Below the pieces are notes generated by a model. It did no database searches. It saw nothing but the letters and a program-made list of their open reading frames with translations, and was not told where the DNA came from. From assembly GCA_965226555.1 (NCBI GenBank), contig CBDDDG010000001.1, positions 128,001-192,000 on the forward strand: a stretch of DNA of 64,000 bases. The letters are read 5' to 3'. Numbering within the stretch: the first letter of the stretch is position 1; every line of letters starts with the position of its first letter. Positions 5,207 through 61,067 of the stretch are shown here, one piece after another. The stretch is from Salinispira sp. GTDB taxonomy: Bacteria > Spirochaetota > Spirochaetia > DSM-27196 > Salinispiraceae. A program made the translations under genes and the position numbers.

Positions 5207-5494
5207 TTAATGCGATCCGTTCCGCACTGTCCGCATTTCCTCATCGCTCAGCCCGGTAATTCTCTGAACAGCCTCTGTCGACAAGCCTTCCAAAAACATA
5301 CTGCGGGCGTTTTTTCTCCGCTCCTCAATATGCCCCTCAGCGCGACCTTTCAGAATACCCTTTTCCATACCCTTCGCAATGCCCTCAGCCCGGCCCTTTG
5401 TGATACCCTGCTCAAGACCCTCAACACGGCCTTTCAGAATACCCTTCTCCATGCCTTCCCTGACGAAGGCGTTGGTTATGTTATATGTCCGCAT
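5207..5494 (-). CDS. Predicted intragenic RpnS small protein (95 aa), copy 1
   Basis: GAAGGAGaaaacagtATG in frame within rpn. Equivalent starts at 6917, 8153, 9575 and 11160. Confidence 0.65.
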   Translation of the reverse strand: MRTYNITNAFVREGMEKGILKGRVEGLEQGITKGRAEGIAKGMEKGILKGRAEGHIEERRKNARSMFLEGLSTEAVQRITGLSDEEMRTVRNGSH

Positions 5495-5940
5495 ACTGTT
5501 TTCTCCTTCAGGATATAGTTTCCTGTTAATTTTCTCAAACTGTTCATACAGTCCCAAGTCCTTCAGGTAGCCCAGCACACTCTCTGCCAGATCAGTAAAG
5601 TCTTGTGAAGACAGACCGTTCAGGAGCTGCGCAATTTCTTTCAGCCCCTCAGTGTCCATTTCATTATCTCGCATTATATACCACAATGCAGTCGATGTAT
5701 ATCGGTTTTCATCGGAACGCCATGCCAACTGTTTCTTTGTCATTCTACAAAGATCGCGCACAATGTACGACACTTTCACCCTGACATCTACCGTGCCTTC
5801 AATCATAGATTCGAAAGCAGCATTTCCATGCGAACTGTAAAATGTGAGTGGGAGGTTCCATTCCTTTTTTCCATGGTAGAGCAGCAGTATATAGATAGCA
5901 TCATTTTCATTGTACACATTGCTGTTTCTGAGGGCATGCT

Positions 5941-6071
5941 ACAGAAACTTTTGCTACTGGAAATTGTGCAGAGCACAATTTCCAGTAGCAAAAGTTTCAA
6001 ATTCGGAATGCTTTCTTTGTGCTTAGCATTCTCCTATTTCATAGAAAGTTTTGCCTGTGGCAAAACTTTGT
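5941..6071 (+). mobile_element. 131-bp palindromic mini-element (MITE/REPIN-like) inserted in rpn copy 1
   Basis: Empty site gcatgct|gataatt is visible in copy 2. Perfect 26-bp-arm hairpin, ~45-nt core, 11-bp-arm hairpin; no target duplication. Confidence 0.85.
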
Positions 6072-6641
6072 GATAATTATCGATTTGAGTGAGCGCATGT
6101 TTATGCTGGTAGCTTTTGTGTTCAATAATGAACAGGGCTTTCCGGTCGGGGTCTGACAGGAAGGGGGCGCTGACAACGAGATCGCAGTGAATGTTCTTTT
6201 TTCCCGCAATGTAGCTGGGGTTTTCAATGCGGATTTTGTCCATGTCCAGCTTGGCAAGAGTTGTATCCTCACAGAACAGCCGCAGCAGGTCGAGAATCAT
6301 ACGGGGGGTTCTGTAGTAGGCGATCTTGAAGGCTATGTCGTGGATGTTGCCTGTGCTATGGGATGATTTTTTCATATTCTTCCTCCTACATCTGTGACGG
6401 GAGAAAAACGAGATATGAATGACAAAATGAGAAATTTTTGTGAAATTTTGTAATTATTTTTTTAGAAGGGTATGTTCCCGGAAACATCCGAGCATGATGA
6501 ACAGGCAGTTCAGGATCTGGCGCGAGAGTTTATGCAGACAGGAGCTGCAACGCGGGTCGCGCTGCAACTCCTGTTTAATTTAATCTGTTCCAGACGCATG
6601 GGTGAGCCGGATGCGTGGTCGAGCAGGCCGAGCGGCGATAA

Positions 6642-7667
6642 TTAATGCGATCCATTCCGCACTGTCCGCATTTCCTCATCGCTCAGCCCGGTAATTCTCT
6701 GAACGGCCTCTGTCGACAAGCCTTCCAAAAACATACTGCGGGCGTTTTTTCTCCGCTCCTCAATATGCCCCTCAGCACGACCTGTTCGCAGACCTTTCAG
6801 AATGCCTTTCTCCATGCCCTGCTCAAGACCCTCAGCGCGACCTTTCAGAATACCCTTTTCCATACCTTTCTCCATACCTTCCCTGACGAAGGCGTTGGTT
6901 ATGTTATATGTCCGCATACTGTTTTCTCCTTCAGGGTACAGTTCCCTGTTAATTTTCTCAAACTGTTCATACAGTCCCAAATCTTTTAGATAACCCAGCA
7001 CACTCTCTGCCAGATCAGTAAAGTCTTGTGAAGACAGACCGTTCAGGAGCTGCGCAATCTCTTTCAGCCCCTCAGCATCAATCTCATTATCTCGCATTAT
7101 ATACCACAACGCAGTCGATGTATATCGTTTTTCATCAGAACGCCATGCCAACTGTTTCTTTGTCATTCTACAAAGATCGCGCACAATGTACGACACTTTC
7201 ACCCTGACATCTACCGTGCCTTCAATCATAGATTCGAAAGCAGCATTTCCATGCGAACTGTAAAATTCGCGCTGGAGGTTCCATTCCTTTTTTCCATGGT
7301 AGAGCAGCAGTATATAGATAGCATCTTTTTCATTGTACACATTGCTGTTTCTGAGGGCATGCTGATAATTATCGATTTGAGTGAGCGCATGTTTATGCTG
7401 GTAGCTTTTGTGTTCAATAATGAACAGGGCTTTCCGGTCGGGGTCTGATAAGAAGGGGGCGCTGACAACGAGATCGCAGTGAAGGTTCTTTTTTCCCGCA
7501 ATGTAGCTGGGGTTTTCAATGCGGATTTTGTCCATGTCCAGCTTGGAAAGCGTTGTATCCTCACAGAACAGCCGCAGCAGGTCGGGAATCATACGGGGGG
7601 TTCTGTAGTAGGCGATCTTGAAGGCTATGTCGTGGATATGGCCTGTGCTGTGGGATGATTTTTTCAT
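6642..7667 (-). CDS. Rpn-family nuclease/putative transposase, array copy 2 (intact)
   Basis: AGGAGG SD then ATG 7667; HD..FK, D..EHK PD-(D/E)XK core, LYHG..W, EG-repeat tail and C-terminal HTH. Confidence 0.9.
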   Translation of the reverse strand: MKKSSHSTGHIHDIAFKIAYYRTPRMIPDLLRLFCEDTTLSKLDMDKIRIENPSYIAGKKNLHCDLVVSAPFLSDPDRKALFIIEHKSYQHKHALTQIDNYQHALRNSNVYNEKDAIYILLLYHGKKEWNLQREFYSSHGNAAFESMIEGTVDVRVKVSYIVRDLCRMTKKQLAWRSDEKRYTSTALWYIMRDNEIDAEGLKEIAQLLNGLSSQDFTDLAESVLGYLKDLGLYEQFEKINRELYPEGENSMRTYNITNAFVREGMEKGMEKGILKGRAEGLEQGMEKGILKGLRTGRAEGHIEERRKNARSMFLEGLSTEAVQRITGLSDEEMRTVRNGSH

Positions 7668-7925
7668 AAACATTCCTCCTACATCTGTGACGGGAGAAAA
7701 ACGAGATATGAATGACAAAATAAGAAATTTTTGTGAAATTTTGTAATTATTTTTTTTAGAAGGGTATGTTCCCGGAAACATCCGAGCATGATGAACAGGC
7801 AGTTCAGGATCTGGCGCGAGAGTTTATGCAGACAGAGCTGCAACGCGGGTCGCGCTGCAACTCCTGTTTAATTTAATCTGTTCCAGACGCATGGGTGAGC
7901 CGGATGCGTGGTCGAGCGCCAATTA

Positions 7926-8903
7926 TTAATGCGATCCGTTCCGCACTGTCCGCATTTCCTCATCGCTCAGCCCGGTAACCTTCCGAACGTCATCTGCTGA
8001 AAGTCCTATGGAAAACATACTGCGGGCGTTTTTTCTCCGCTCCTCAATATGCCCCTCAGCGCGACCTTTCAGAATGCCCTTCTCCATTCCTTTCAGAATA
8101 CCTTTCGCAATGCCTTCCCTGACGAAGGCGTTGGTTATGTTATATGTCCGCATACTGTTTTCTCCTTCAGGGTACAGTTCCCTGTTAATTTTCTCAAACT
8201 GTTCATACAGTCCCAAATCTTTTAGATAACCCAGCACACTCTCTGCCAGATCAGTAAAGTCTTGTGAAGACAGACCGTTCAGGAGCTGCGCAATCTCTTT
8301 CAGCCCCTCAGCATCCATCTCATTATCTCGCATTATATACCACAACGCAGTCGATGTATATCGTTTTTCATCGGAACGCCATGCCAACTGCTTCTTTGTC
8401 ATTCTACAAAGATCGCGCACAATGTACGACACTTTCACCTTGACATCTACCGTGCCTTCGGTAAGGGATTCGGAAGCAGCATTTCCATGTGAACTGTAAA
8501 ATGTGAGTGGGAGGTTCCATTCCTTTTTTCCATGGTAGAGCAGCAGTATATAGATAGCATCATTTTCATTGTACACATTGCTGTTTCTGAGGGCATATTG
8601 ATAGTTATCGATTTGAATGAGAGCATGTTTATGCTGGTAGCTTTTGTGCTCAATAATGAATAGAGCCTTCCGCTCGGGGTCTGACAGGAAGGGGGCGCTG
8701 ACAACGAGATCGCAGTGAAGATTCTTTTTTCCTGCAATGTAGCTGGGGGTTTCAATGCGGATTTTGTCCATGTCCAGCTTGGCAAGAGTTGTATCCTCAC
8801 AGAACAGGCGCAGCAGGTCGGGAATCATACGGGGGGTTCTGTAGTAGGCGATCTTGAAGGCTATGTCGTGGATATGGCCTGTGCTCTGGGATGATTTTTT
8901 CAT
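7926..8903 (-). CDS. Rpn-family nuclease/putative transposase, array copy 3 (intact)
   Basis: As copy 2, but with a different C-terminal HTH segment (MFSIGLSADDVRKVTGLS). Confidence 0.9.
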   Translation of the reverse strand: MKKSSQSTGHIHDIAFKIAYYRTPRMIPDLLRLFCEDTTLAKLDMDKIRIETPSYIAGKKNLHCDLVVSAPFLSDPERKALFIIEHKSYQHKHALIQIDNYQYALRNSNVYNENDAIYILLLYHGKKEWNLPLTFYSSHGNAASESLTEGTVDVKVKVSYIVRDLCRMTKKQLAWRSDEKRYTSTALWYIMRDNEMDAEGLKEIAQLLNGLSSQDFTDLAESVLGYLKDLGLYEQFEKINRELYPEGENSMRTYNITNAFVREGIAKGILKGMEKGILKGRAEGHIEERRKNARSMFSIGLSADDVRKVTGLSDEEMRTVRNGSH

Positions 8904-9588
8904 AAACATTCCTCCTACATCTGTGACAGGAGAAAAACGAGATATGAATGACAAAATGAGAAATTTTTTCAAAAAAGTGAAAGTTTCTTCCTGAAGAGGT
9001 AAGTTCCCATACCATATAGACGGGCTACATTGAATGGTAAATGATACAATGAGAAATTTTTGTGAAATTTTGTAATTATTTTTTTTAGAAGGGTATGTTC
9101 CCGGAAACATCCGAGCATGATGAACAGGCAGTTCAGGATCTGGCGCGAGAGTTTATGCAGACAGAGCTGCAACGCGGGTCGCGCTGCAACTCCTGTTTAA
9201 TTTAATCTGTTCCAGACGCATGGGTGAGCCGGATGCGTGGTCGAGCAGGCCGAGCGCCAATTATTAATGCGATCCGTTCCGCACTGTCCGCATTTCCTCA
9301 TCGCTCAGCCCGGTAATTCTCTGAACGGCCTCTGTCGACAAGCCTTCCAAAAACATACTGCGGGCGTTTTTTCTCCGCTCCTCAATATGCCCCTCAGCGC
9401 GACCTGTTCGCAGTCCTTCCTGCCGACCTGTCTGCAATCCTGTCTGAAGTCCTTCCTGCCGACCCTTTGTGATACCCTGCTCAAGACCTTCAACACGACC
9501 TTTCAGAATACCCTTCTCCATACCCTTCGCAATGCCTTCCCTCACGAAGGCGTTGGTTATGTTATATGTCCGCATACTGTTTTCTCCT

Positions 9589-9718
9589 ACTGAAACTTTT
9601 GCATTGGAAAATTGTGCTTCGCACAATTTCCAGTAGCAAAAGTTTCACATTTGGCAGACCTCGTTGCGCTTGGCATTCTCTCATTTTGTAGAAAGTTTTG
9701 CCTGCGGCAAAACTTTGT
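9589..9718 (+). mobile_element. 130-bp palindromic mini-element, variant core
   Basis: Same termini (actgaaacttttgc...gcaaaactttgt) and two-hairpin layout as 5941-6071; absent from copies 1, 2, 3 and 5. Confidence 0.85.
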
Positions 9719-10151
9719 CTAGGATATAATTTCCTGTTAATTTTCTCAAACTGTTCATACAGTCCCAAGTCCTTCAGGTAGCCCAGCACACTCTCTGCCA
9801 GATCAGTAAAGTCTTGTGAAGACAGACCGTTCAGGAGCTGCGCAATTTCTTTCAGCCCCTCAGTGTCCATTTCATTATCTCGCATTATATACCACAATGC
9901 AGTCGATGTATATCGTTTTTCATCAGAACGCCATGCCAACTGTTTCTTTGTCATTCTACAAAGATCGCGCACAATGTACGACACTTTCACCCTGACATCT
10001 ACCGTGCCTTCAATCATAGATTCGAAAGCAGCATTTCCATGCGAACTGTAAAATGTGAGTGGGAGGTTCCATTCCTTTTTTCCATGGTAGAGCAGCAGTA
10101 TATAGATAGCATCTTTTTCATTGTACACATTGCTGTTTCTGAGGGCATGCT

Positions 10152-10281
10152 ACAGAAACTTTTGCATTGGAAAATTGTGCAAGCACAATTTCCAGTAGCA
10201 AAAGTTTCAAATTCGGAATGCTTTCTTTGTGCTTAGCATTCTCCTATTTCATAGAAAGTTTTGCCTGTGGCAAAACTTTGT
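10152..10281 (+). mobile_element. 130-bp palindromic mini-element at the same site as in copy 1
   Basis: Core and right hairpin are identical to 5941-6071; the left arm differs. Confidence 0.85.
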
Positions 10282-10944
10282 GATAATTATCGATTTGAGT
10301 GAGAGCATGTTTATGCAGGTAGCTTTTATGCTCAATAATGAATAGAGCTTTTCGGTCGGGGTCTGACAGGAAGGGGGCGCTGACAACGAGATCGCAGTGA
10401 ATGTTCTTTTTTCCCGCAATGTAGCTGGGGTTTTCAATGCGGATTTTGTCCATGTCCAGCTTGGCAAGAGTTGTATCCTCACAGAACAGGCGCAGCAGGT
10501 CGGGAATCATACGGGGGGTTCTGTAGTAGGCGATCTTGAAGGCTATGTCGTGGATATGGCCTGTGCTGTGGGATGATTTTTTCATATTCTTCCTCCTACA
10601 TCTGTGACGGGAGAAAAACGAGATATGAATGACAAAATGAGAAATTTTTTCAAAAAAGTGAAAGTTTCTTCCTGAAGAGGTAAGTTCCCATACCATATAG
10701 ACGGGCTACATTGAATGGTAAATGATACAATGAGAAATTTTTGTGAAATTTTGTAATTATTTTTTTTAGAAGGGTATGTTCCCGGAAACATCCGAGCATG
10801 ATGAACAGGCAGTTCAGGATCTGGCGCGAGAGTTTATGCAGACAGAGCTGCAACGCGGGTCGCGCTGCAACTCCTGTTTAATTTAATCTGTTCCAGACGC
10901 ATGGGTGAGCCGGATGCGTGGTCGAGCAGGCCGAGCGGCGATAA

Positions 10945-11916
10945 TTAATGCGATCCATTCCGCACTGTCCGCATTTCCTCATCGCTCAGCCCGGTAATTC
11001 TCTGAACAGCCTCGGTCGACAACCCTTCCAAAAACATACTGCGGGCGTTTTTTCTCCGCTCCTCAATATGCCCCTCAGCGCGACCTTTCAGAATACCCTT
11101 TTCCATACCTTTCTCCATACCTTCCCTGACGAAGGCGTTGGTTATGTTATATGTCCGCATACTGTTTTCTCCTTCAGGGTACAGTTCCCTGTTAATTTTC
11201 TCAAACTGTTCATACAGTTTTGGATCTAGATCTTTGATATAGCCTAACACACTTTCTGCCAGATCAGTAAAGTCTTGTGATGACAGACCGTTCAGGAGCT
11301 GCGCAATCTCTTTCAGCCCCTCAGTGTCCATCTCATTATCTCGCATTATATACCACAACGCAGTCGATGTATATCGTTTTTCATCGGAACGCCATGCCAA
11401 CTGCTTTTTGTCCATTCGCCTCAGATCGCGCACAATGTACGACACTTTCACCCTGACATCTACCGTGCCTTCAATCATAGATTCGAAAGCAGCATTTCCA
11501 TGCGAACTATAAAATTCGCGCTGGAGGTTCCATTCCTTTTTTCCATGGTAGAGCAGCAGTATATAGATAGCATCATTTTCATTGTACACATTGCTGTTTC
11601 TGAGGGCATATTGATAGTTATCGATTTGAATGAGAGCATGTTTATGCTGGTAGCTTTTGTGTTCAATAATAAAAAGAGCTTTCCGCTCGGGGTCTGACAG
11701 GAAGGGGGCGCTGACAACGAGATCGCAGTGAAGATTCTTTTTTCCCGCAATGTAGCTGGGGTTTTCAATGCGGATTTTGTCCATGTCCAGCTTGGCAAGA
11801 GTTGTATCCTCACAGAACAGCCGCAGCAGGTCGAGAATCATACGGGGGGTTCTGTAGTAGGCGATCTTGAAGGCTATGTCGTGGATGTTGCCTGTGCTAT
11901 GGGATGATTTTTTCAT
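10945..11916 (-). CDS. Rpn-family nuclease/putative transposase, array copy 5 (intact; upstream leader cut by IS)
   Basis: As copy 2, with the shortest EG-repeat tract. Confidence 0.9.
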   Translation of the reverse strand: MKKSSHSTGNIHDIAFKIAYYRTPRMILDLLRLFCEDTTLAKLDMDKIRIENPSYIAGKKNLHCDLVVSAPFLSDPERKALFIIEHKSYQHKHALIQIDNYQYALRNSNVYNENDAIYILLLYHGKKEWNLQREFYSSHGNAAFESMIEGTVDVRVKVSYIVRDLRRMDKKQLAWRSDEKRYTSTALWYIMRDNEMDTEGLKEIAQLLNGLSSQDFTDLAESVLGYIKDLDPKLYEQFEKINRELYPEGENSMRTYNITNAFVREGMEKGMEKGILKGRAEGHIEERRKNARSMFLEGLSTEAVQRITGLSDEEMRTVRNGSH

Positions 11917-12007
11917 AAATACTCCTCCTACATCTGTGACAGGAGAAAAACGAGATATGAATGACAAAATGAGAAATTTTTTCAAAAAAGTGAAAGGGTG
12001 GATTTTG

Positions 12008-13277
12008 TTTTGAAATTGGGATATAAACCTTTGGACAGACCCCTCCTCCCCAGTGTAAAACGAAGGTTATTCGTATACACTGGGGGTTGTATAAAACATA
12101 AAAGGAGGGAAACAGTGAACAGTAGTATCACATATTCTCAGTATCATCTCAAGTCTCGGAAGTATCAGGCGGCTTCGATGTATGATTGGCGGTTGCGGAT
12201 GGTTCGGTATGCCCAGGAGCATTCGATCAAGGCGGCTGCTCGGGAGTTCGAGGTGTCGCGCAACACGGTGCGGCGGTGGGTTCGGCGCTTTGAATCCGGC
12301 GAGGGGCTTGAAGACAAGAAGCGGGGCACGACCAATCATCCGATGAAGATGAAATTCGGGCACCGGTGTCATCTCGAGAGTCTTGTCCAGACCAAGAATC
12401 GGAATCACAACAAAATCATTGGAACTCAGGTGCAAAAGCAGTTGCAGACGGAAGTTGGCGGGAAGTACAGCCTGCCGACGATTATCAAGACGCTAAAGCA
12501 GATAGGGGCGCGGAAAACAAAGAAGCCGAAGGCGCTACCCAAGAGAGATTTGCGGGAGGTAACCGACAGGATGAAGTTCGGCGAGTGCATTCAGATTGAT
12601 ATCAAGTATCTGACGGACATTCCCGCTATGCGGTTTTCTCAGAAGTGTTTAGACGTTCCGAAGTACCAGATAACCGCCCGGGATCGGGCGACAGGGGCTC
12701 TGTGGTACGCCTTCGCCAATGAGAAGAGCAGTATGGTAACAACCTTGTTCGCCGAGTACCTGCTGGAGCACCTGCGGAATCGCGGCGGAGACCTTGTCAA
12801 CGGCATAACGGTTCAGACCGATAACGGGGCAGAGTTCACCGTTCGGCATCTGAGCAAGACCCGAACGTCGGGGTTTGAGCAGGCGCTCATACAGGCGGGT
12901 GTCGAGTATCGGCGTATTCCGCCCGGGCATTGCACATGGAACAGTTCTGTCGAGTCCTCGCACCGGCTCATTGAGGATGAGTTCTACAGTCAGGTGATGA
13001 ATCCAAAGCTCAATGAGTTTCTTAAGGAAGCCGAGGAGTATCAGATAGATTTCAATTACCGGCGGTTCAACACCTACCGCAAAGGGACTCCGCTGGATCT
13101 TTTGAGGCAGCGGAATACCAATGTGGATAGTGATATTCTCCGGCTCAAGCCGATCATAATGGAGCAACGGTTCACACGGCCGACGCTTGAGCGATGGAGG
13201 GCTTGGCACTCGGAAGAAATGATCGCATAATAGGTCAAAGTGGGGTCTGTTCAAACCTTAATATCCCACTTTTATAA
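12008..13277 (+). mobile_element. IS481-like insertion sequence; transposase probably GTG 12115-13230
   Basis: N-terminal HTH (AAAREFEVSRNTVRRW) and rve core QIDIKY / QTDNGAEF / VESSHR. Imperfect IRs gggatataaacctttggacagacccc and ggggtctgttcaaaccttaatatccc; AGGAGG before GTG. Ends are approximate. Confidence 0.8.
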
Positions 13278-20439: not shown

Positions 20440-22590
20440 ATGATACTTTTCAATACACGTACTAAAACAGGGAAGTACTCCCTGTTTGTCGTATTCTTAG
20501 TGGTGCTTGCCGTGCTGCTTGCTGGGTGTCCAATGCCGGAACCAAGCCCTGAACCCGATCCAATGACGGAACCGGAACCAATGACGCCGGGCACCATGGA
20601 CGCCCCAACCCTTGAAGCGGGGAATGGTCAACTAACGGTTAACTGGACTCCGCCCGCTGATAACGGTGGCAGCCCCATTACCGCGTATGAACTTCGCCAT
20701 AGCGATGACGGCGGGAGCAACTGGTCGGAGGATATTACTACAGCCGACGCGCCAGCCGCAAGCGCCGCCATCACGAACCTGACAAACGGCACCCCCTACG
20801 TCGCGCAGGTGCGCGCACGGAACAGCGCGGGCGCAGGCGACTGGTCGGGATCGAGCGATGGAGCAATACCTATTACCGTTCCCCTCGCGCCGAATGCGTT
20901 TACGCTCGCAGTGAGTATGCAAACAATTACCGCGTCATGGGCTGCTCCGACCGATACTGGAGGCAGCGCCATTATTCGCTATGAACTACAATATCGCGTA
21001 GTCGGAACACGCGCGTGGGAATCTGCCACCGCCGATGCCGACACCTACACCCTCACCATCCCCAACCTGACAAAAGGTGCAGAGTATGAGGCGCAGGTCT
21101 ACGCTGTCAATGGTCAGGGCAATGGCAACCCAACGGAAATTATGAAAATAACAATTCCGGCTACCAAACCCGCAGCGCTGTCCGCTCCTACGCTCACAGG
21201 CGGAAACGCCCAGATCACCGCAGCATGGACGGCGCCCGATGACGGCGGCAGCCCCATTACCGAGTACCATGTGCAGCACAGAACAAGCGCCGCTAGCACA
21301 TGGTCAACGACCGATACAGATAACATCGCCACTATTACTGATGGTACCACGAGCCACCCCATTACCGGGCTGACAAACGGTGCCTCCTACCACGTACGGG
21401 TGCGCGCGGTCAACGATATCGGCACTAGCGACTGGTCTACACCTGCAACGGGAACAACGGTAATTTCTGCGACACAGACTACTTCTTCGGGTACGGCAGC
21501 GACGGTAGACCTTTCGGCTGCCGCTATGACCATTATTGCCGATGAGACCCCAACCGTTGCTTTGACCGTGGTGGAACCGGGCACTCTCGCGGTTAGTGGA
21601 TCAGGAGACATTACAGTCACCGCCGCAACTGCGCCCGGTACGGTCACCCCTCCGACAGTTGATTCGGGTACCGGAGCTGTTACGGTTACCGCGACGACAA
21701 CGGCAGGAACATATCTGGTATATGGCAGCAAAGCCGGAGACATACTGTTTGCCGAATATTTTTACGTTACCGTGAGTCCTGCTGATAACGCTGCACTGGA
21801 CACAGCGGTAGCTGCGGGAATAAGTAATTGGGGCAATACTGCCGATCTCAACTACATTGTTACCACGGCAGTAACGGATATGACCGATATTTTCAAGGGT
21901 ACACTTGGCGATCCAAACATGTTCAATGGCGATATCTCCGGTTGGGATGTCAGTAAGGTAACGACTATGGAAAATATGTTCAATTATGCAAGCGCATTCA
22001 ATGGCGATATCTCCGGCTGGGATACCAGCGCGGTAACGAGTATGAACTATATGTTCAGTTACGCATTCGCATTCAATGGCGATATCTCCGGCTGGGATGT
22101 CAGCGCGGTAACGAATATGTTCCATATGTTCGATGGCGCAAGAGTATTTAATGGCGATATCTCACTCTGGGATGTCAGTAAGGTAACGAATATGATCTTT
22201 ATGTTCAGTTACGCAAGCGCATTCAATGGCGATATTTCCGGCTGGAATACTCGCGCGGTAACGAATATGAACTATATGTTCTGGGATGCATTCGCATTCA
22301 ATGCCGATATTTCCGGCTGGGATGTCAGCAATGTAACGGGTATGGGTTATATGTTCAATAGCGCAAGAGCATTCAATGCCGATATCTCGGGCTGGGATGT
22401 CAGTTCGGTAGCGATTACGAGCAATATGTTCAATGGAGCAAGGGCATTCAATCAAAATCTTGAGGAGTGGAAGGATCATTGGTCGACTGCTGCCGGGACG
22501 CTTGATGCCGCTGGCACATACACCGGAAACAAAGCAGATATGTTTACGGATTCCGGCGTAACAGGTAATCTGATTCCGTCATGGTTTTAG
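20440..22590 (+). CDS. Surface lipoprotein, 3x fibronectin type III plus DUF285/BspA-like repeats (paralog 1)
   Basis: Lipobox LLAGC, PE linker, FN3 motifs (W..P..GGSPIT.Y; Y.V.VRA.N..G), 25-aa FNGDISGWDVS.VT.M..MF repeats. Confidence 0.9.
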   Translation: MILFNTRTKTGKYSLFVVFLVVLAVLLAGCPMPEPSPEPDPMTEPEPMTPGTMDAPTLEAGNGQLTVNWTPPADNGGSPITAYELRHSDDGGSNWSEDITTADAPAASAAITNLTNGTPYVAQVRARNSAGAGDWSGSSDGAIPITVPLAPNAFTLAVSMQTITASWAAPTDTGGSAIIRYELQYRVVGTRAWESATADADTYTLTIPNLTKGAEYEAQVYAVNGQGNGNPTEIMKITIPATKPAALSAPTLTGGNAQITAAWTAPDDGGSPITEYHVQHRTSAASTWSTTDTDNIATITDGTTSHPITGLTNGASYHVRVRAVNDIGTSDWSTPATGTTVISATQTTSSGTAATVDLSAAAMTIIADETPTVALTVVEPGTLAVSGSGDITVTAATAPGTVTPPTVDSGTGAVTVTATTTAGTYLVYGSKAGDILFAEYFYVTVSPADNAALDTAVAAGISNWGNTADLNYIVTTAVTDMTDIFKGTLGDPNMFNGDISGWDVSKVTTMENMFNYASAFNGDISGWDTSAVTSMNYMFSYAFAFNGDISGWDVSAVTNMFHMFDGARVFNGDISLWDVSKVTNMIFMFSYASAFNGDISGWNTRAVTNMNYMFWDAFAFNADISGWDVSNVTGMGYMFNSARAFNADISGWDVSSVAITSNMFNGARAFNQNLEEWKDHWSTAAGTLDAAGTYTGNKADMFTDSGVTGNLIPSWF

Positions 22591-33128: not shown

Positions 33129-34013
33129 ATGAAGAAAAAGAAACGGAATCAGGCGGCTCATCGAAAGCCGCGAAAACAATGGGATGAAACTCACAAATTC
33201 TTGTTTGCCGATGCGGAATCCATATATCAACTGCTGCAATTTGTCGATGATGACTGGATCACCTCTATTCGCCCTGAGAACATTACGATTGTGAGCAACG
33301 AGTTCATTGAACGGGAACTCGGATGCAAGAATCTGAAGAAGCTCATGCGCAAAATATCGGATATCGTTGCGAAAATTTCCTTCCGATACGGGAATGAAGA
33401 GAAAACCGTCTATATCATTCTGGAACATCAATCGACCGTCGATTATTCCATGAGCAGGCGCCTATTCGAATATCCTGTTATTGATGTGCATAGGCTCCCG
33501 CATGAAAAAATACTGAAGTCCCACGGTCGTGTGGCTGCCTATTTTTACCTTGCGCGCTACAACAAAGATTTGAATAATGAGGATAATTGCGCTGAATTCA
33601 CGAAGCATCTTTTGAACATTCTCCAGCATGACACTGGCGAAAAGGTGAAGGAGTCCTTGTTAATTATGAGCGATGTGCTCTATAATACACACATCTCAGA
33701 GACGAACGTTAACGATTACACTATGAAGGAGGTAATTGATATGATTACAAAAGAAGGAATAGAAATACTGTTCCCGTGGCAACTGAGAATTTACAAAGAG
33801 GTCAAAGCCCAGGTCAAGCAGGAAACTCAGGAGGAAATACAGGAAGGTCGTCAAGAAGGTCGCGCGGAGGGGCATATTGAGGAGCGGAGAAAAAACGCCC
33901 GCAGTATGTTTTCCAAAGGATTTTCAGCCCATGACATTCAGGATGTTACTGGGCTGAGCGAGGATGAAATTCGGACACTGCAGAATGGGTCGGGGAAGAA
34001 CGGATCGCGCTAA
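33129..34013 (+). pseudogene. Divergent Rpn-family protein with an apparent in-frame internal deletion; RpnS frame 33741-34013 intact
   Basis: WD..HK.LF, SDIV, LEHQS present, but it lacks the P.V.YNG..W segment seen in the other Rpns. AAGGAGGTaattgatATG internal start. Confidence 0.7.
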
Positions 34014-34104
34014 AATAATAGAAACTGCACATGCTTGGCAAAACATGGTAGAAAGTTTTGCAAAATGCAAAAGTTTCTGGTAGAATAGCGCGTACGCACG
34101 AATA

Positions 34105-37179: not shown

Positions 37180-39386
37180 ATGCAGATTGTAAGCATTAAC
37201 CAAGAACCAAGAACCCTTTAACACCCTCTGTGCTGTGGGGTTTTCTCATCATGATGACATTGCTCGTCGCGGCCTGCCCAATGCCGGAACCGGAACCAAT
37301 GCCGGAACCAGTGCCCATGGACATGGATACATCTCCCTTAATAGGCGTGTGGACCGCGGATAATGAGTTTCATACCATAGAATTCACCGCGACAACGTTC
37401 ATAGACCGTGTTTCGGGTTTGACCTGTGATTACACGGATAACGGAAACTCAATTACGCTCAGTAATTGTATGGGAGTCGAAGGAGCGGAAAACCGTAATG
37501 GGGCAACGGTAGAGTATACCATTGATGGAGATACGTTAACATTGGAGGGCAATGTCTATACCCGGCAGAATTCAGATGTACCTGAACCAACCGTGCCGGG
37601 CACCATGGCTGCTCCAAGCCTTGAAGCGGGGAATGAGCAACTAAGGGCTAACTGGACTCCGCCGGAAGAAACCGGCGGCAGCGACATTACCGCGTATGAA
37701 CTTCGCCATAGCGATAACGGCGGGAGCAGCTGGTCGGAGGATATTACTACAGTCGCCGCGCCAGCCACAGAAACCATCATCACGAACCTGACAAACGGCA
37801 CCACATACGTCGCGCAGGTGCGCGCACGGAACAGCGCTGGCGCAGGCGAATGGTCGGAATCGAGCGCAGAAGCAACATCTATTGGCGTTTCCCTCGCGCC
37901 GAATGGGTTCATGCTTGCAGTGAGTATGCAAACAATTACCGCAACATGGACTGCGCCGACCAATAGTGGCGACAGCGCCATTATTCGCTATGAACTGCAA
38001 TATCGCGTAGTCGGAACACGCGCGTGGGAACCTGTCATTGCCACCGCCGATGCCGACACCCTGACTCTCCCCATCCCCAACCTGACAAAAGGTGCCGAGT
38101 ACGAGGTGCAGGTCTACGCTGTCAATGGTCAGGGCAATGGTAACCCAACGGAAATTAAGAAAATAACAATTCCGGCTACCAAACCCAGCGCGATGAATGC
38201 TCCCACGCTCACAACCGGAGACAACAATCTCACCGCAACATGGACAGCGCCCGATGATGACGGCGGCAGCGCAATTACCGCGTACCATGTGCAGTATAGT
38301 TCAGACGGCGAAAGCACTTGGACGGCGGTCACCGACACTATAAGTGGTACTGCCATAAGCCACCCCATTACGGGCCTAGTAAGCGGTACCTCCTACGATG
38401 TGCAGGTGCGCGCCGTCAACGCGGTGGACAATGGCGACTGGTCTGCATCCGCAACAGAAACAGTGCGGATTATTGGAACACAGGCTCCCTTTGGTACGGC
38501 AGCCTCCGTCATTCTTTCGGCTGCTATTAATACCCAAATTGCCGATGAGAGCCTCACCGTTACTTTGGCTACGGCTACTACCCCGGTCGCAGGGGTTACC
38601 GTTGCCCTGCCGACAGTTGATGCAAATACCGGAATTATTACGGTTACCGCAACAACAACGGCCGGAACATATGTGGTATCCGGCGCAACCGGAGGCGGAA
38701 CTGAACGGTTTTCCGAAAAGTTTTATGTTACCGTGAGGCCTCACGATGGTGATGGCAGCGCTGGCGCTGCTAATACCGATGGCGGTAACGATGAACTGGA
38801 CGCCGCGGTAGATGCGGGGAGATCAACATGGGGCAATACTGCCAATCTCAACTACATTATTACCACGGCAGTAAGGGATATGAACAATATTTTTGAGAAT
38901 GCAAGATTATTCAATGGTGATATCTCACTCTGGGATGTCAGTTCGGTAACGGATATGTCCGGGATGTTTCAAGGGTCTTCACTATCAAAAAGCCGATTCA
39001 ATGGCGACATCTCTGGCTGGGATGTCAGCTCGGTAACGAATATGACCACTATGTTCACTAACTCAGCATTCAGTAGCGATATCACCGGCTGGGATGTTAG
39101 TTCGGTAGTGGATATGTCCGGTCTGTTCAATCAAGCAGACGCATTCAATCAAAATATCTCCGGCTGGGATGTCAGCTCGGTAACGAGTATGGACTTTATG
39201 TTTTGGAATGCAGGAGTATTCAATCAAAATCTTGAGGAGTGGAAGGATCATTTGCCGCTTGATGCTTCCGGCACATATACCGGAAACAAAACAAGTATGT
39301 TTGTGGGTTCCGGCTTGGATTCGGGTGATACAACGGATCCGGAGACTGCTGTGACCCAACCGAAGTATCCATCATGGTATTGGTAG
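37180..39386 (+). CDS. Surface lipoprotein FN3 x3 plus DUF285 (paralog 2); the SD-backed ATG at 37180 is out of frame with the main ORF (GTG 37230)
   Basis: Lipobox LVAAC, an extra N-terminal beta domain, FN3 and DUF285 repeats; AACCAAG x2 lies between the ATG and the h-region. Confidence 0.85.
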
Positions 39387-43043: not shown

Positions 43044-44486
43044 TTATTCTCTTGCTGCAAGGGCTCCTTCAATATCCCACAGGCGCATGGTGTTATCGTC
43101 ACTGCCGGAGAGCGCTTGGCTGCCGTCTGGTGAAAAGGCAACAGAATAGACGCTGCCACTGTGCCCGCTGAAGAGCTGAAGCTCGTCTCCGCTTGAAATA
43201 TCCCACAGGCGCATGGTGTTATCGTCACTGCCGGAGAGCGCTTGGCTGCCGTCTGGTGAAAAGGCAACAGAACGTACCCAGTCACTGTGCCCGCTGAAGA
43301 GCTGAAGCTCGTCTCCGCTTGAAATATCCCACAGGCGCATGGTGTTATCGTCACTGCCGGAGAGCGCTTGGCTGCCGTCTGGTGAAAAGGCAACAGAAAG
43401 GACGATGCCACTGTGCCCGCTGAAGAGCTGAAGCTCGTCTCCGCTTGAAATATCCCACAGGCGCATGGTGTTATCGTCACTGCCGGAGAGCGCTTGGCTG
43501 CCGTCTGGTGAAAAGGCAACAGAAAGGACGATGCCACTGTGCCCGCTGAAGAACTGAAGCTCGTCTCCGCTTGAAATATCCCACAGGCGCATGGTGTTAT
43601 CGTTACTGCCGGAGAGCGCTTGGCTGCCGTCTGGTGAAAAGGCAACAGAAAGGACGATGCCACTGTGCCCGCTGAAGAGCTGAAGCTCGTCTCCGCTTGA
43701 AATATCCCACAGGCGCATGGTGTTATCGTCACTGCCGGAGAGCGCTTGGCTGCCGTCTGGTGAAAAGGCAACAGAACGTACCCAGTCACTGTGCCCGCTG
43801 AAGAGCTGAAGCTCGTCTCCGCTTGAAATATCCCACAGGCGCATGGTGTCATCGTCACTGCCGGAGAGCGCTTGGCTGCCGTCTGGTGAAAAGGCAACAG
43901 AACGTACCCAGTCACTGTGCCCGCTGAAGAGCTGAAGCTCGTCTCCGCTTAAAATATCCCACAGGCGCATGGTGTTATCGTCACTGCCGGAGAGCGCTTG
44001 GCTGCCGTCTGGTGAAAAGGCAACAGAACGTACCCAGTCACTGTGCCCGCTGAAGAGCTGAAGCTCGTCTCCGCTTGAAATATCCCACAGGCGCATGGTG
44101 TTATCGTCACTGCCGGAGAGCGCTTGGCTGCCGTCTGGTGAAAAGGCAACAGAATAGACGCTGCCACTGTGCCCGCTGAAGAGCTGAAGCTCGTCTCCGC
44201 TTGAAATATCCCACAGGCGCATGGTGTTATCGTCACTGCCGGAGAGCGCTTGGCTGCCGTCTGGTGAAAAGGCAACAGAATAGACGCTGCCACTGTGCCC
44301 GCTGAATATCTGAAGCTTGTCTCCGCTTGAAATATCCCACAGGCGCATGGTGTCATCGGCACTGCCGGAGAGCGCCTTGCTGCCGTCTGGTGAAAAGGCA
44401 ACAGAACGTGCCCATTCACTGTGCCCGTCGCCAAAGAGCGGCATTGCAAGTAAACATACGATGAATATAACTAAAACCTTTTTCAT
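43044..44486 (-). CDS. Secreted WD40-repeat protein, 11 near-identical 42-aa (126-bp) repeats
   Basis: AGGAGG SD, signal peptide, GH....SVAFSPDGSQALSGSDDNTMRLWD repeats. Confidence 0.95.
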   Translation of the reverse strand: MKKVLVIFIVCLLAMPLFGDGHSEWARSVAFSPDGSKALSGSADDTMRLWDISSGDKLQIFSGHSGSVYSVAFSPDGSQALSGSDDNTMRLWDISSGDELQLFSGHSGSVYSVAFSPDGSQALSGSDDNTMRLWDISSGDELQLFSGHSDWVRSVAFSPDGSQALSGSDDNTMRLWDILSGDELQLFSGHSDWVRSVAFSPDGSQALSGSDDDTMRLWDISSGDELQLFSGHSDWVRSVAFSPDGSQALSGSDDNTMRLWDISSGDELQLFSGHSGIVLSVAFSPDGSQALSGSNDNTMRLWDISSGDELQFFSGHSGIVLSVAFSPDGSQALSGSDDNTMRLWDISSGDELQLFSGHSGIVLSVAFSPDGSQALSGSDDNTMRLWDISSGDELQLFSGHSDWVRSVAFSPDGSQALSGSDDNTMRLWDISSGDELQLFSGHSGSVYSVAFSPDGSQALSGSDDNTMRLWDIEGALAARE

Positions 44487-57205: not shown

Positions 57206-57796
57206 TTACAACTTACTGAAAAACAATTCTTTATCTCGATCTTGTTGTTTCTTTTCTTCTCTCAAGGCTGCACGAATAGCCTTTAAGGAAATTGGTTTGA
57301 CGCCAAGTCCCGAATTGGTAGGGTCTTCCCATTCTGTGCAAACCGTATGCGCAATTTTCACTGTTTGCCATTCATCAAAATAGCGGAACATTTCTCCATA
57401 TTTGCGAGCTATGGACATTTCCGCATCATCCAGAAGATGTGGTTCTTCCTTTATATCTTTCCACAACAAAACATCATAGCCCTTTGTCCGTATGTGATTT
57501 TTCCAGAATGAGTTTATTTTTATTTTATCGTTAACCACATCGCCATTCCGTATGAGACTCAGAGTATTTGACAGAACCGGCCCCAACTTCATTGAGACAT
57601 AATAGTCGTTGGTAATAAATCGTTTCTGTTCCTTATACATTTCCCTGTCGCAAAAATAGAGAAGTTTCATGAGCTTGAGGTACGGCATCGTATAGTGCCT
57701 CTTGCCCTTACCCTTCTCTCCCGCGCATTTCAGCAATTCAATTGCCAATGCTGTTGTTTTTTTTTCGTCAAAAACCCTTTCATCCGCTGTGATCAT
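57206..57796 (-). CDS. Panacea (DUF4065/SocA-like) antitoxin-domain protein
   Basis: LKLMKLLYF.DR...I..D.Y.SM.LGPV.S and H....EW.DP; GGAGGT SD. Confidence 0.85.
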   Translation of the reverse strand: MITADERVFDEKKTTALAIELLKCAGEKGKGKRHYTMPYLKLMKLLYFCDREMYKEQKRFITNDYYVSMKLGPVLSNTLSLIRNGDVVNDKIKINSFWKNHIRTKGYDVLLWKDIKEEPHLLDDAEMSIARKYGEMFRYFDEWQTVKIAHTVCTEWEDPTNSGLGVKPISLKAIRAALREEKKQQDRDKELFFSKL

Positions 57797-57904: not shown

Positions 57905-58981
57905 TTAATGCGATCCGTTCCGCACTGTCCGCATTTCCTCATCGCTCAGCCCGGTAACATCCTGAATGTCATGGGCTGAAAATCCTTTGGAAAACATACT
58001 ACGGGCAGTTTCTCGAATGCCTTCTTCACGACCTGTTCGCAGTCCTTCCTGCCGACCTGTCTGCAATCCTTCCTGCCGACCTGTCTGAAGTCCTGTCTGA
58101 AGTCCTTCTTGCAATCCTTCCTGCCGACCTGTCTGAAGTCCTTCTTCGCGGCCTTCCTGCCGACCCATCTCCGCAATGCGGGCTTTGAATGTTTCCGCAT
58201 TCATTCTGAACATTTTCGCTACCTCCTTACCTCTCGGTTCTTTTGTTCTTTCTAACTGGTTCATTAACGTGTCTAAGTCTATAACAATTCCAAACATAGA
58301 ATCTACCACGCCGACAAATTCCTCTATCAGCTCCAGCGATTCCTCATTCAGCATTTCTGCTATCGCTTTCTCCACCTTCCGAATGTCCCAATCCGTATTC
58401 AGCAGATTTTTCGAGTACAGATCAAGGTACATAACAGCCGCAAACATTCTTCCCCGCTGCTGCAGCTGCTCCGCAGAATAATCGTTCTCACTTATCAGAT
58501 CGTAGGGAAAGGGGGCAAGATACTGCGGGAATTTCCGTTTCCGTTGCTTTCTGACATTCCCGGGCACCTTCCATTTTCTCGTACCATTATAAAACACAAT
58601 GGGCAGAAATATCAATTCGCAGTCATCGGGAATTGCGCCGGAGCGGTGAATGTTCCGATAGAGAAGGTTTGTGTACTCCGACATGCGGAGGGGCATGTCT
58701 TTGTCCACTCCGGACTGATGCTCAAGGAGCACATAAATGACAACATCTCCCGTGTGATCCTTCTGCGTTATTTTGCAGACAATGTCGGCCATCCGTGTTT
58801 TCGCATGGTCGATGAAAAAGGTACCGTTTTCAATGGTTATGTCCTCGGTTCGCAGTTTTTTCGTCCATGCGCCTCCGACAAAGCGTTGAAGAAATTGGAG
58901 CATTATTGCGGGTTGGAACAGCAGGGATCGGTATCCTTGGTCGTAGGGAACGGGGGCGGGTTTTTCTTTGAAATCGATCAT
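57905..58981 (-). CDS. Divergent Rpn-family nuclease (intact) with RpnS frame 58213-57905
   Basis: YD..YR.L, ADIV, LLEHQS.VD..MPLRM..Y, PIVFYNG..W; internal TAAGGAGGTagcgaaaATG. Confidence 0.9.
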   Translation of the reverse strand: MIDFKEKPAPVPYDQGYRSLLFQPAIMLQFLQRFVGGAWTKKLRTEDITIENGTFFIDHAKTRMADIVCKITQKDHTGDVVIYVLLEHQSGVDKDMPLRMSEYTNLLYRNIHRSGAIPDDCELIFLPIVFYNGTRKWKVPGNVRKQRKRKFPQYLAPFPYDLISENDYSAEQLQQRGRMFAAVMYLDLYSKNLLNTDWDIRKVEKAIAEMLNEESLELIEEFVGVVDSMFGIVIDLDTLMNQLERTKEPRGKEVAKMFRMNAETFKARIAEMGRQEGREEGLQTGRQEGLQEGLQTGLQTGRQEGLQTGRQEGLRTGREEGIRETARSMFSKGFSAHDIQDVTGLSDEEMRTVRNGSH

Positions 58982-59579: not shown

Positions 59580-61067
59580 CTAAAACCATGAGGGAATCAG
59601 ATTACCTGTTACGCCGGAACTCAAAAACATATCTCCTTTGATTCCGGTATATTTGCCATTAGCATCAAGCAGCCAATGATCCCCCCACTCCTCAAGATCT
59701 TGATTGAATGCGCTTGCCAAAAAGAACATAGTTGTCATATCCGTCACCGCACTGACATCCCAGCCCGAGATGTCGGCATTGAATGCTCTTGCACTATAGA
59801 ACATAGATGTCATATCCATTACTGAGCTGACATCCCAGCCGGAGATATCGCCATTGAATGAGCTTGCGACAGCGAACATATTGTTCATATCCGTTACCGA
59901 ACTGACATCCCAAAGCGAGATATCGCCATTGAATGAGCTGTTAGTGAATATAGTGCTCATATCCGTTACTACCGTGGTAATAATGTAGTTGAGGTCGGCA
60001 GTTTGTCCCCAAGCAGTTATCCCCGCATCTATCTTCGCTTTCAGATCAGTATTAATTTCTGAGGCATCATTACCTTGAGGACTCTCGGTAACATAGAAAT
60101 GTTCGGCAAAGAGTATGTCATCGGTTTCTGTTTTAATGCCGTATACCAGATATGTTCCTGCTGTTGTACCTGCGGTAACCGTAATTGTAGTACCGGTAAG
60201 CGGTTCATAAGTCGGCGGGGTGATCCCTGCGGGCGGAGGTACGTAGGTTACATCAATGTCTCCCATTTCATTAACCGTGTGAGTGCCCGTCGTCACATAA
60301 AGGGCTGGTTTCTCACTGGCAATAATTTCATTAAGGGCAGCCGAAAGGCTTACATTTACTGCCGTACCCGCAGAAGTCCGTATCGCAGAATCTGTTGGTG
60401 TTTTCGTTGCGATTTCCGACCAGCCGCCACTGCCGACTGCATTGACGGCGCGCGCCCGTACTTCGTACTCGGCGTCGTTTGTCAGGCCGTCAATGGTGTG
60501 GTCGTGTTTGCCCGGTGCCGGAGCAATTTCCGTCCATGCTCCGCCACCTGTGCGATACTGCAATTCGTACCCGGTAACGGGGCTGCCGCCGTCATCTTCC
60601 GGGGCAGTCCATAGAGCAACAAGCCGCTCAGTGCCCGCATAAAGGGTTGGGGCATCCGGCGCGTCAGGAACAGTGGCAGGGGGAGTTTCAGCGGCAGATT
60701 CCGACCAGTCGCCAGCGCCGATTTCATTGACGGCGCGCACCTGTACCTCGTACTCGGCTGTCTTTGTCAGTCCGGTAATGGTGTGGCTTGTGTTTGTGCC
60801 GATACCGGAGCTAATTTCCTTCCATTCTTCCTCGCCTGTGCGATATTGCAGCTCATACCCGGTAATGGGGCTGCCGCCATTGTTCGGCGCAGTCCATGTA
60901 ACAATGAGTTGCTCATCCCCCGCTTTAAGGGTTGGCGCAGCCATTGTGCCCGGCACGGTTGGCTCGGGTTCAGGGGTCGGTTCCGGCATGGGACATCCAG
61001 CAATCAATATAATAAACATTGCGCAGAATAGAAAAAGGTTCCTCATCCGCATAAAATTAACATTCAT
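59580..61067 (-). CDS. Surface lipoprotein, FN3 x2 plus DUF285 (paralog 3)
   Basis: AAGGAG SD, lipobox LIAGC, FN3 and DUF285 repeats. Confidence 0.9.
   Translation of the reverse strand: MNVNFMRMRNLFLFCAMFIILIAGCPMPEPTPEPEPTVPGTMAAPTLKAGDEQLIVTWTAPNNGGSPITGYELQYRTGEEEWKEISSGIGTNTSHTITGLTKTAEYEVQVRAVNEIGAGDWSESAAETPPATVPDAPDAPTLYAGTERLVALWTAPEDDGGSPVTGYELQYRTGGGAWTEIAPAPGKHDHTIDGLTNDAEYEVRARAVNAVGSGGWSEIATKTPTDSAIRTSAGTAVNVSLSAALNEIIASEKPALYVTTGTHTVNEMGDIDVTYVPPPAGITPPTYEPLTGTTITVTAGTTAGTYLVYGIKTETDDILFAEHFYVTESPQGNDASEINTDLKAKIDAGITAWGQTADLNYIITTVVTDMSTIFTNSSFNGDISLWDVSSVTDMNNMFAVASSFNGDISGWDVSSVMDMTSMFYSARAFNADISGWDVSAVTDMTTMFFLASAFNQDLEEWGDHWLLDANGKYTGIKGDMFLSSGVTGNLIPSWF

Follow-up and report, generated by a model that had tools for sequence, protein, structure and literature searches.

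A five-unit Rpn nuclease array with predicted internal antitoxins, part of a genome-wide, shuffled rpn family tied to lipoprotein genes in a Salinispira genome

Rpn (YhgA) proteins have been described (PMC10400941) as a system in which one gene encodes a full-length protein, RpnL, and its separately made C-terminal tail, RpnS, with an internal start and promoter, neutralisation tuned by a repeat, protection from phage, and no transposon ends. That paper also reports tandem rpn arrays in Parabacteroides (Fig. S1B legend), stand-alone RpnSs, an E. coli pseudogene (rpnD) that still makes RpnS and is a precedent for orphan tails (Fig. S2 legend), and a requirement of the C-terminal domain for Rpn activity (Fig. 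S4 title). RpnP2 guards E. coli against T-even phages, repeat number sets L-S specificity, the largest rpn copy count quoted is 26, and RpnL is speculated to start its own duplications (PMC10400941). Rpn proteins promote RecA-independent recombination, the catalytic residues of E. coli RpnA are D11, D63 and E82, and RpnA-Q84K is inactive in E. coli (PMC5350276). Release, the driver of the repeats, and trans-inhibition are listed as open questions (PMC10400984). Here we analyze an array of five rpn genes in a 64,000-nucleotide (nt) stretch of a Salinispira sp. genome, hereafter the window (G000:C1:128001-192000 in the contig labels used below); the genome assembly spans 2.98 Mb in 26 contigs and is 93.5% complete with 6.7% contamination. 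Three FlaA matches mark its source as a spirochaete. With moderate confidence we read the array as a five-unit Rpn nuclease cluster, with three units intact and two broken by miniature inverted-repeat transposable elements (MITEs), whose tails likely act as separate antitoxins, and as one of 114 clusters that likely spread via recombination anchored in lipoprotein genes.

The five units follow one another head to tail, as the first-pass annotation had proposed. All are on the minus strand, flanked on one side by a glycosyltransferase gene and on the other, immediately upstream of unit 5, by an element resembling insertion sequence (IS) IS481 (12017..13268, plus strand; its best match in NCBIfam, though below the cut-off). 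Units 1 to 5 (5207..6375, 6642..7667, 7926..8903, 9264..10585, and 10945..11916) start at 6375, 7667, 8903, 10585, and 11916, and have in-frame internal ATGs at 5494, 6917, 8153, 9575, and 11160, preceded by GAAGGAG/TAGGAG-AAAACAGT. The open reading frames (ORFs) from these ATGs encode 95, 91, 75, 103, and 71 amino acids (aa), exactly the tail sizes proposed initially, and the copy-specific repeat variation claimed for them was likewise found, with tracts of 10, 9, 5, 12, and 4 four-residue units. The full protein (341, 325, and 323 aa) is encoded by units 2, 3, and 5 alone. In units 1 and 4 the ORF ends after 113 aa, caused by a 130-131-bp hairpin insert at codon ~102 (5941..6071, with two hairpins, and 10152..10281, both minus strand and at identical sites); unit 4 has a second insert (9589..9718, minus strand) within the ribosome-binding site of its RpnS, where the MITE end forms the "TAGGAG". 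The tail ORFs of unit 1 (5207..5494, minus strand) and unit 4 (9264-9575, minus strand) are intact, and since the MITEs at codon ~102 lie upstream of them, both units have likely been left as orphan antitoxins.

Two claims of the first-pass annotation did not hold: that the units are near-identical, and that they differ almost only in their repeats. The nuclease regions share 92.7-97.8% DNA identity, the intact nucleases of units 2, 3, and 5 have 234-237 of ~250 residues in common, units 1 and 4 are broken, and the tail of unit 3 carries an end module unlike that of the other units. The nuclease regions are mosaics in which the best-matching unit switches along the gene, and the picture of one nuclease with many tails is only roughly right, since the nucleases have themselves diverged and are broken in two of five units. 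The spacer common to the units (6376..6641 between units 1 and 2) has a 180-bp core that is 99-100% identical among them.

That the array encodes Rpn proteins is well supported. Units 2, 3, and 5 score 38, 42.6, and 41.9 bits against PF04754 (Transposase_31; cut-off 21), and a profile of 118 sequences (unit 5 plus the 117 full-length sequences among 150 homologs listed) matches the RpnA-S structure 7TH0 with an E-value of 1.1e-5. Across this alignment D65 is invariant, and H12, E85, H86, K87, S88, Q97, and Y101 are kept in at least 90% of homologs; unit 2 reads D13-D65-E85-H-K87-S. An AlphaFold model of unit 5 (mean predicted local distance difference test, pLDDT, 87.3; predicted template modeling score 0.77) has an N-terminal domain resembling PD-(D/E)XK nucleases, including NucS, XisH, and restriction enzymes (Z 5-6; 2vld, Z 6.2), so that both the catalytic residues and the fold expected of Rpn/YhgA proteins (PF04754, COG5464) were found. 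In the same model the repeats fall within one long helix (residues 258-296). The tract begins at tail residue 14, which is within the 8-20 residues after the RpnS methionine expected for the first helix of an RpnA-S-like tail, and the model aligns to all 46 residues of 7TH0 (Z 6.0, root-mean-square deviation 1.5 Å). A phmmer search of the Protein Data Bank with unit 2 gave no match, a Foldseek search with the model gave none at E <=0.001, and a fold prediction from the single sequence was unusable (pLDDT 41). Ratios of nonsynonymous to synonymous polymorphism among intact nucleases (0.22 for 22 copies of subfamily A, which includes the array; 0.17 for 31 copies of subfamily B), with the catalytic Asp retained in 68 of 73 scored copies, show by sequence comparison that the nuclease domains are under purifying selection.

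Internal starts were compared with 9435 internal ATGs in long ORFs of this genome, using pairing with the genome's own anti-Shine-Dalgarno sequence. Of the array's Shine-Dalgarno (SD) energies, that of unit 4 is -7.3 kcal/mol, equalled by 2.7% of the controls, and those of the other four units are -8.1, equalled by 1.9%. Two divergent rpn genes in the window, a subfamily C copy with a 162-nt internal deletion (33129..34013, plus strand; internal start 33741) and an intact subfamily B copy 28% identical to unit 2 (57905..58981, minus strand; internal start 58213), have stronger internal SDs, again as first noted. Genome-wide, all 166 tail starts are ATG and 160 of them have an SD of -6 or better, compared with 8% of the controls (2% at -8); median energies for subfamilies A to E are -8.1, -12.2, -12.4, -8.7, and -12.6 kcal/mol. 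Among 117 foreign and own homologs, 105 have Met at the internal-start position, against 10-61 in 15 control windows.

A candidate internal promoter lies ahead of each of these starts in the array. In unit 2 a sigma-70-like site (7096..7124, minus strand; 10 of 12 matches) ends 179 nt before the RpnS start, and the 10/12 promoter-like sites of units 1, 3, 4, and 5 (5673-5701, 8332-8360, 9884-9912, and 11345-11373, minus strand) likewise end 179-185 nt upstream of the internal ATG, except that the distance in unit 4 is 309 nt because of its MITE insert. TATAAT occurs within 400 nt upstream in 25/29, 31/31, 7/7, 0/4, and 1/2 intact copies of subfamilies A to E, compared with 95 of 1155 ORF-interior segments; subfamily D has an 11/12 site, TTGACA-TATTAT, in place of the perfect -10. 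Copies within a subfamily are not independent, and the effective sample for these start and promoter statistics is therefore five. As consensus matches, then, a strong internal SD and a promoter-like -10 are present in all five subfamilies, and the RpnL-RpnS arrangement of an in-frame internal start with SD and promoter before a variable tail was found at the sequence level. In each unit the C-terminal tail is likely also made on its own, as a predicted RpnS antitoxin.

The inserts in the array are IS5-family MITEs. Their family comprises 490 blastn loci in the genome and was not found in the 40 relatives searched. Of 44 non-redundant sites, 18 have an exact 5-bp target duplication (shuffled mean 0.68, maximum 7), and such duplications are also seen around forms of 27, 54, 98, 126, and 168 bp; those of the three array MITEs are degenerate. 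The MITE ends are near-identical to those of a 1340-bp IS5-family element (NF033581, 228 bits vs. cut-off 140) that is itself flanked by a 5-bp duplication at 7 of the 10 copies with both ends, and this shared signature identifies the MITEs as its partners, with Rpn not needed for their movement. Each carries an outward promoter-like TTGCNN-16-TAAAAT, oriented toward the downstream gene at 29 of 39 sites outside rpn; selected orientation within rpn was rejected, as 14 of 15 co-oriented inserts there do not differ significantly from that background (Fisher p 0.15). Within rpn genes the MITEs occupy a single site in a tail and ~15 distinct ones on the nuclease side, and in four subfamilies a MITE lies within 12 codons upstream of the internal ATG. 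The allele in the ribosome-binding site of unit 4 is present in 15-17 paralogs genome-wide.

Other origins for the inserts were also considered. The Y1 (HUH) transposase PF01797, which bears on an origin as repetitive extragenic palindromes (REP/REPIN) or as palindrome-associated transposable elements (PATEs) of the IS200/IS605 type, had no match among five candidates in this 93.5% complete genome, and an Rfam search of the insert returned only chance matches to microRNA hairpins below gathering scores. A translated palindromic element of the Rickettsia type was rejected, as all 16 of the frame-keeping inserts listed contain at least one stop, and a self-transposing 27-bp unit was set aside in favor of the simpler reading that it arose by internal deletion of the 126-bp form. 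Such 27-bp palindromes (e.g., 34051-34077 and 56641-56667 in the window), 16 of which have exact 5-bp duplications among the matches listed, are the shortest MITE members, probably collapsed from longer copies. Subfamilies A, D, and E also have MITEs at one homologous codon, directly ahead of the catalytic Glu (G000:C2:40576, C26:17063, and C23:11574), one element being common to A and D and another occurring in E. A second repeat, GC-rich and ~40 bp long, has 91 matches, 59 of them within 800 bp of rpn (e.g., G000:C21 ~353073 and C14 ~99092); it forms tandem runs and is inserted into an IS5 copy and a 168-bp MITE.

The array is a small part of a much larger family. Five tail-start motifs identify 166 sites genome-wide (69 in subfamily A, 53 in B, 15 in C, 12 in D, and 17 in E); nuclease and tail are both intact at 72 of these loci, the nuclease alone is broken at 83, the tail alone at one, and both are broken at 10. 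Of the 83 orphan tails, 79 keep an SD of -6 or better. The tblastn-matched rpn pieces add up to 161,900 bp, or 5.4% of the genome, in 114 clusters, 15 of which contain three or more loci, and the 3' flank is single-copy at 88 of the 108 clusters tested. First-look PF04754 candidates, which are not scored copy numbers, amount to 161 here vs. at most 23 in each of 300 other spirochaete genomes, and searching with unit 2 brought up matches in 16 of 40 relatives, all of them weak. Our literature searches, whose coverage excluded most subscription journals, returned no report of a comparable rpn expansion or of a lipoprotein link.

Several further features of this family were noted. 5' fragments of other rpn genes are nested in the leaders upstream of many copies, and stand-alone subfamily E tails occur just downstream of A or B genes (G000:C11:65323, C18:65014, and C10:75544 are listed for nested fragments or tails). 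Subfamily C tails have seven-residue repeats of the QETKEMR/QEIQEKR type beside four-residue ones (e.g., G000:C10:162401-163645). A family of repeat-rich helical ORFs (L100, G000:C14:256988-257992, and seven related), often beside or spliced into rpn fragments, has no Pfam or NCBIfam match; nor does a 466-aa ORF present in ~9-11 copies (L099, G000:C12:33889-35286), which is probably an unclassified transposase. One phage record contains a distant rpn homolog.

Variation among the paralogs follows a consistent pattern. Distinct tails are found in 65 of 68 subfamily A and 50 of 50 subfamily B copies, and length changes in common-ended tails are always multiples of 4 aa (51/51 in A and 48/48 in B). 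Six end modules occur, the two commonest of them in subfamilies A to D, and the nearest nuclease neighbor carries the same end module about as often as, or slightly more often than, expected by chance (12 of 22 vs. 8.9; 19 of 30 vs. 17.4). Among 58 near-complete A sequences, the four-gamete test fails for 65% of site pairs separated by more than 300 nt. A tree built from 60 A nuclease regions is for the most part unresolved; it puts the array in three places, although a single clade is not rejected (approximately unbiased test p 0.39). Subfamily A MITE alleles at codons 82, 193, and 245 are found singly and in every pairing; as each has its own diagnostic sequence, reassortment is a simpler account than repeated insertion. 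Comparison of the sequences establishes that paralogs swap segments and tail ends, and gene conversion is the mechanism we infer. Loss of mismatch repair was rejected as a cause, with mutS and mutL both intact. Matching orphan tails to intact partners proved uninformative (22 of 25 A orphans have an intact copy of the same length) because lengths are dense and only one tail is identical to that of an intact copy. The "amplifying, self-diversifying repertoire" of the first-pass annotation is thus supported genome-wide, far beyond the array itself.

By analogy with the described system, phage defence is the likely selected function, and the best-surviving alternative makes it the whole explanation: copy number and repeats would be maintained as an antiphage repertoire, each nuclease-tail pair sensing or resisting a different phage, and the lipoprotein linkage described below would be incidental. 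The protection by RpnP2 from T-even phages and the setting of specificity by repeat number (PMC10400941) speak for it, as do the nearly all-distinct tails, the purifying selection on the nuclease, and a gene with a Panacea-domain adjoining the subfamily B copy. We nevertheless hold it only tentatively, as a clear second to the reading given at the outset: the nuclease is broken at 93 of 166 loci, broken alleles have been amplified too (one MITE allele reaches as many as 18-20 copies), expansion extends to IS elements, MITEs, and lipoproteins, as under relaxed purging, and the neighbors of the array are not defence genes.

The evidence for lipoprotein-anchored spread comes from the flanks. A co-oriented fn3/DUF285 lipoprotein gene lies 0-900 bp upstream of 50 of 109 single-strand clusters (3.6 expected), compared with six upstream in divergent orientation and two downstream; viewed from the lipoprotein genes, rpn stands behind 58 of 118 and in front of two. 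In the window this arrangement is exemplified by the subfamily B copy and the fn3/DUF285 gene directly upstream of it (59580..61067, minus strand). All five subfamilies are preceded by one and the same lipoprotein 3' end with its terminator-like hairpin (45 loci). Intact copies that are dispersed end raggedly on the 3' side and show upstream similarity that often exceeds 1.1 kb, the homologous upstream DNA usually being an fn3/DUF285 gene, and target duplications are not supported (4 of 38 dispersed intact copies vs. 1.8 shuffled, maximum 7). Outside the array, its spacer has a single further match, at G000:C2:124346-124510, immediately downstream of a DUF285 lipoprotein gene. One homologous and one ragged end are the footprint that homology-anchored illegitimate recombination would leave. 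The fixed 5' anchor in a lipoprotein gene and the ragged 3' ends without target duplication point, at the level of flank comparisons, to spread of this kind rather than transposition; our literature search found no paper tying it to the rpn system. The lipoprotein family itself is large, with ~118 loci and ~232 kb of matches, and DUF285 candidates number 218 here vs. at most 14 in 40 relatives; other members in the window lie at 20440-22590 and 37230-39386.

The linkage also admits the view that Rpn is the engine of the process, its nicks initiating recombination that copies and reshuffles lipoprotein-rpn cassettes as a contingency system for surface proteins. The strength and one-sidedness of the linkage fit this view, as do the expansion of both rpn and DUF285 only here among the genomes searched, the near-free exchange among ~92%-identical paralogs despite intact mutS and mutL, and the accounts in PMC5350276 (RecA-independent recombination by Rpn) and PMC10400941 (speculated self-duplication by RpnL). 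We consider it unlikely, given that no fn3/DUF285 neighbor was found at 87 foreign rpn loci and that hitchhiking accounts for the linkage without catalysis.

The remaining two alternatives fare far worse. That rpn is an autonomous transposon with the hairpin elements as its non-autonomous partners might be suggested by 166 copies at 114 places with single-copy 3' flanks at most clusters, and by the enrichment of hairpin elements in or near rpn (93 of 490 loci overlap rpn, vs. 29 expected), but it is largely refuted by the lack of fixed ends or target duplications around rpn, of any excess of duplication-flanked inverted-repeat pairs spanning it, and of a need for such a partner, the MITE having its own in the 1340-bp IS5-family element; Rpn was rejected on these same grounds as a transposase of itself or of the hairpin element. 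An artefact of assembly or strain mixing, for which one could cite the completeness and contamination estimates and the occurrence of some clusters twice with shared flanks, is very improbable with array units at most 97.8% identical and differing in MITE state and tail, unique 3' flanks at 88 of 108 clusters, and, against a noisy consensus, length changes that keep the frame in all 99 common-ended tails of A and B.

The preferred reading, a nuclease cluster with separate tails spread by lipoprotein-anchored recombination, would work as follows. The full protein, a PD-(D/E)XK nuclease with a helical tail, is predicted to be toxic; the internal promoter-like site and strong SD would supply the tail alone, and this RpnS would bind the full protein through its repeat-bearing helix, as for E. 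coli RpnA. A MITE landing upstream of the internal start would kill the nuclease and spare the tail ORF with its SD, turning the unit into a stand-alone antitoxin gene. Copies trade segments, tail-end modules, and MITE alleles, presumably by gene conversion. A new copy would most likely originate from a conversion tract that begins in the shared 3' end of an fn3/DUF285 gene, passes through rpn, and breaks off raggedly, after which local unequal crossing-over may form arrays.

Several observations weigh against parts of this account. The census is anchored on the tail-start (RpnS) motif and thereby over-counts intact tails. Broken and intact copies are not told apart by their private changes (20 synonymous to 31 other vs. 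17 to 21). The depletion of MITEs in tails is borderline (p 0.02-0.05 by length, uncorrected for target preference), and tails have a lower AT content than the nuclease side (48% vs. 54%). No fn3/DUF285 gene lies upstream at 53 of 109 clusters; the array is among the places without one, having the IS481-like element and an ABC-transporter operon upstream, and its wider neighborhood is a polysaccharide cluster and transporters with no defence genes. The structural Z-scores are middling, all below 8. Subfamily A has K at the position of RpnA Q84, the inactivating Q84K state, although EHKS with Q97 is the normal form among the 118 homologs of the clade.

Two other genes of the window may be mentioned. 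A Panacea/SocA antitoxin-domain gene (57206-57796) lies directly downstream of the subfamily B rpn, and a WD40-like protein (43044-44486) is built from a 126-bp unit repeated 10.6 times with 96% identity.

Neither PMC10400941 nor its commentary, PMC10400984, settles how rpn spreads or what drives its repeat variation. This genome, with ~6 times the largest copy number quoted in PMC10400941, preserves footprints of spread in the fixed lipoprotein 5' anchor, the ragged 3' ends, and MITE markers reassorted among paralogs, and the array, whose nuclease-tail pairs range from 4 to 12 repeats within 7 kb, is a ready-made natural set for the study of antitoxin specificity. More speculatively, and with a low probability in our estimate, Rpn and the fn3/DUF285 genes might form a self-spreading cassette system in which Rpn nicking starts the anchored recombination by which both families are copied and reshuffled, the antitoxin makes copies hard to lose, and MITEs bank orphan antitoxins. 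If true, this would answer how rpn moves although it is not a transposase and would tie rpn to surface variation in a spirochaete.

Comparison with known systems places these results. Like other IS5-family MITEs, the inserts have short terminal inverted repeats, 5-bp duplications (18/44), a cognate NF033581 transposase, and an outward promoter-like site; they differ in their modular double-hairpin build, in their five lengths of 27-168 bp, and in that alleles inside rpn spread with the gene and not by fresh transposition. With TIGR01784 (T_den_put_tspse) the family shares its nature as a multi-copy spirochaete Rpn family, and the subfamily B and C copies of the window score above that model's cut-off, whereas unit 2 falls below it (32.6 vs. 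52.1). Compared with E. coli RpnA as described in PMC5350276, unit 2 has D13, D65, and E85 for D11, D63, and E82, a correspondence that rests on motif order and not on direct alignment, as well as a C-terminal tail that varies, but K87 and Q97 where RpnA has Q84 and R94.

The closest match is the Rpn/YhgA RpnL-RpnS system, as described in PMC10400941. The two share the PF04754 nuclease, the internal SD, ATG, and promoter, four-residue repeats in the first helix of a tail with a 7TH0-like fold, tandem arrays, stand-alone RpnSs, a broken gene with a tail, and the lack of terminal repeats or target duplications. Rpn identity, internal start, repeat variation, and tandem arrays are thus already published, and the array alone is an ordinary example of that system, less intact than first described. 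The interest lies beyond it, in a shuffled Rpn family of extreme scale, in orphan tails created by MITEs, and in the one-sided link to surface-lipoprotein genes. In contrast to the published system, 166 tails and 72 intact genes occur in 2.98 Mb (vs. 26), variation lies among the paralogs of one genome and not among strains, end modules are swapped between subfamilies only ~28-40% identical, orphan tails are made by MITEs, copies are positioned behind fn3/DUF285 lipoprotein genes, the active site reads EHKS/Q, and subfamily C carries seven-residue repeats.

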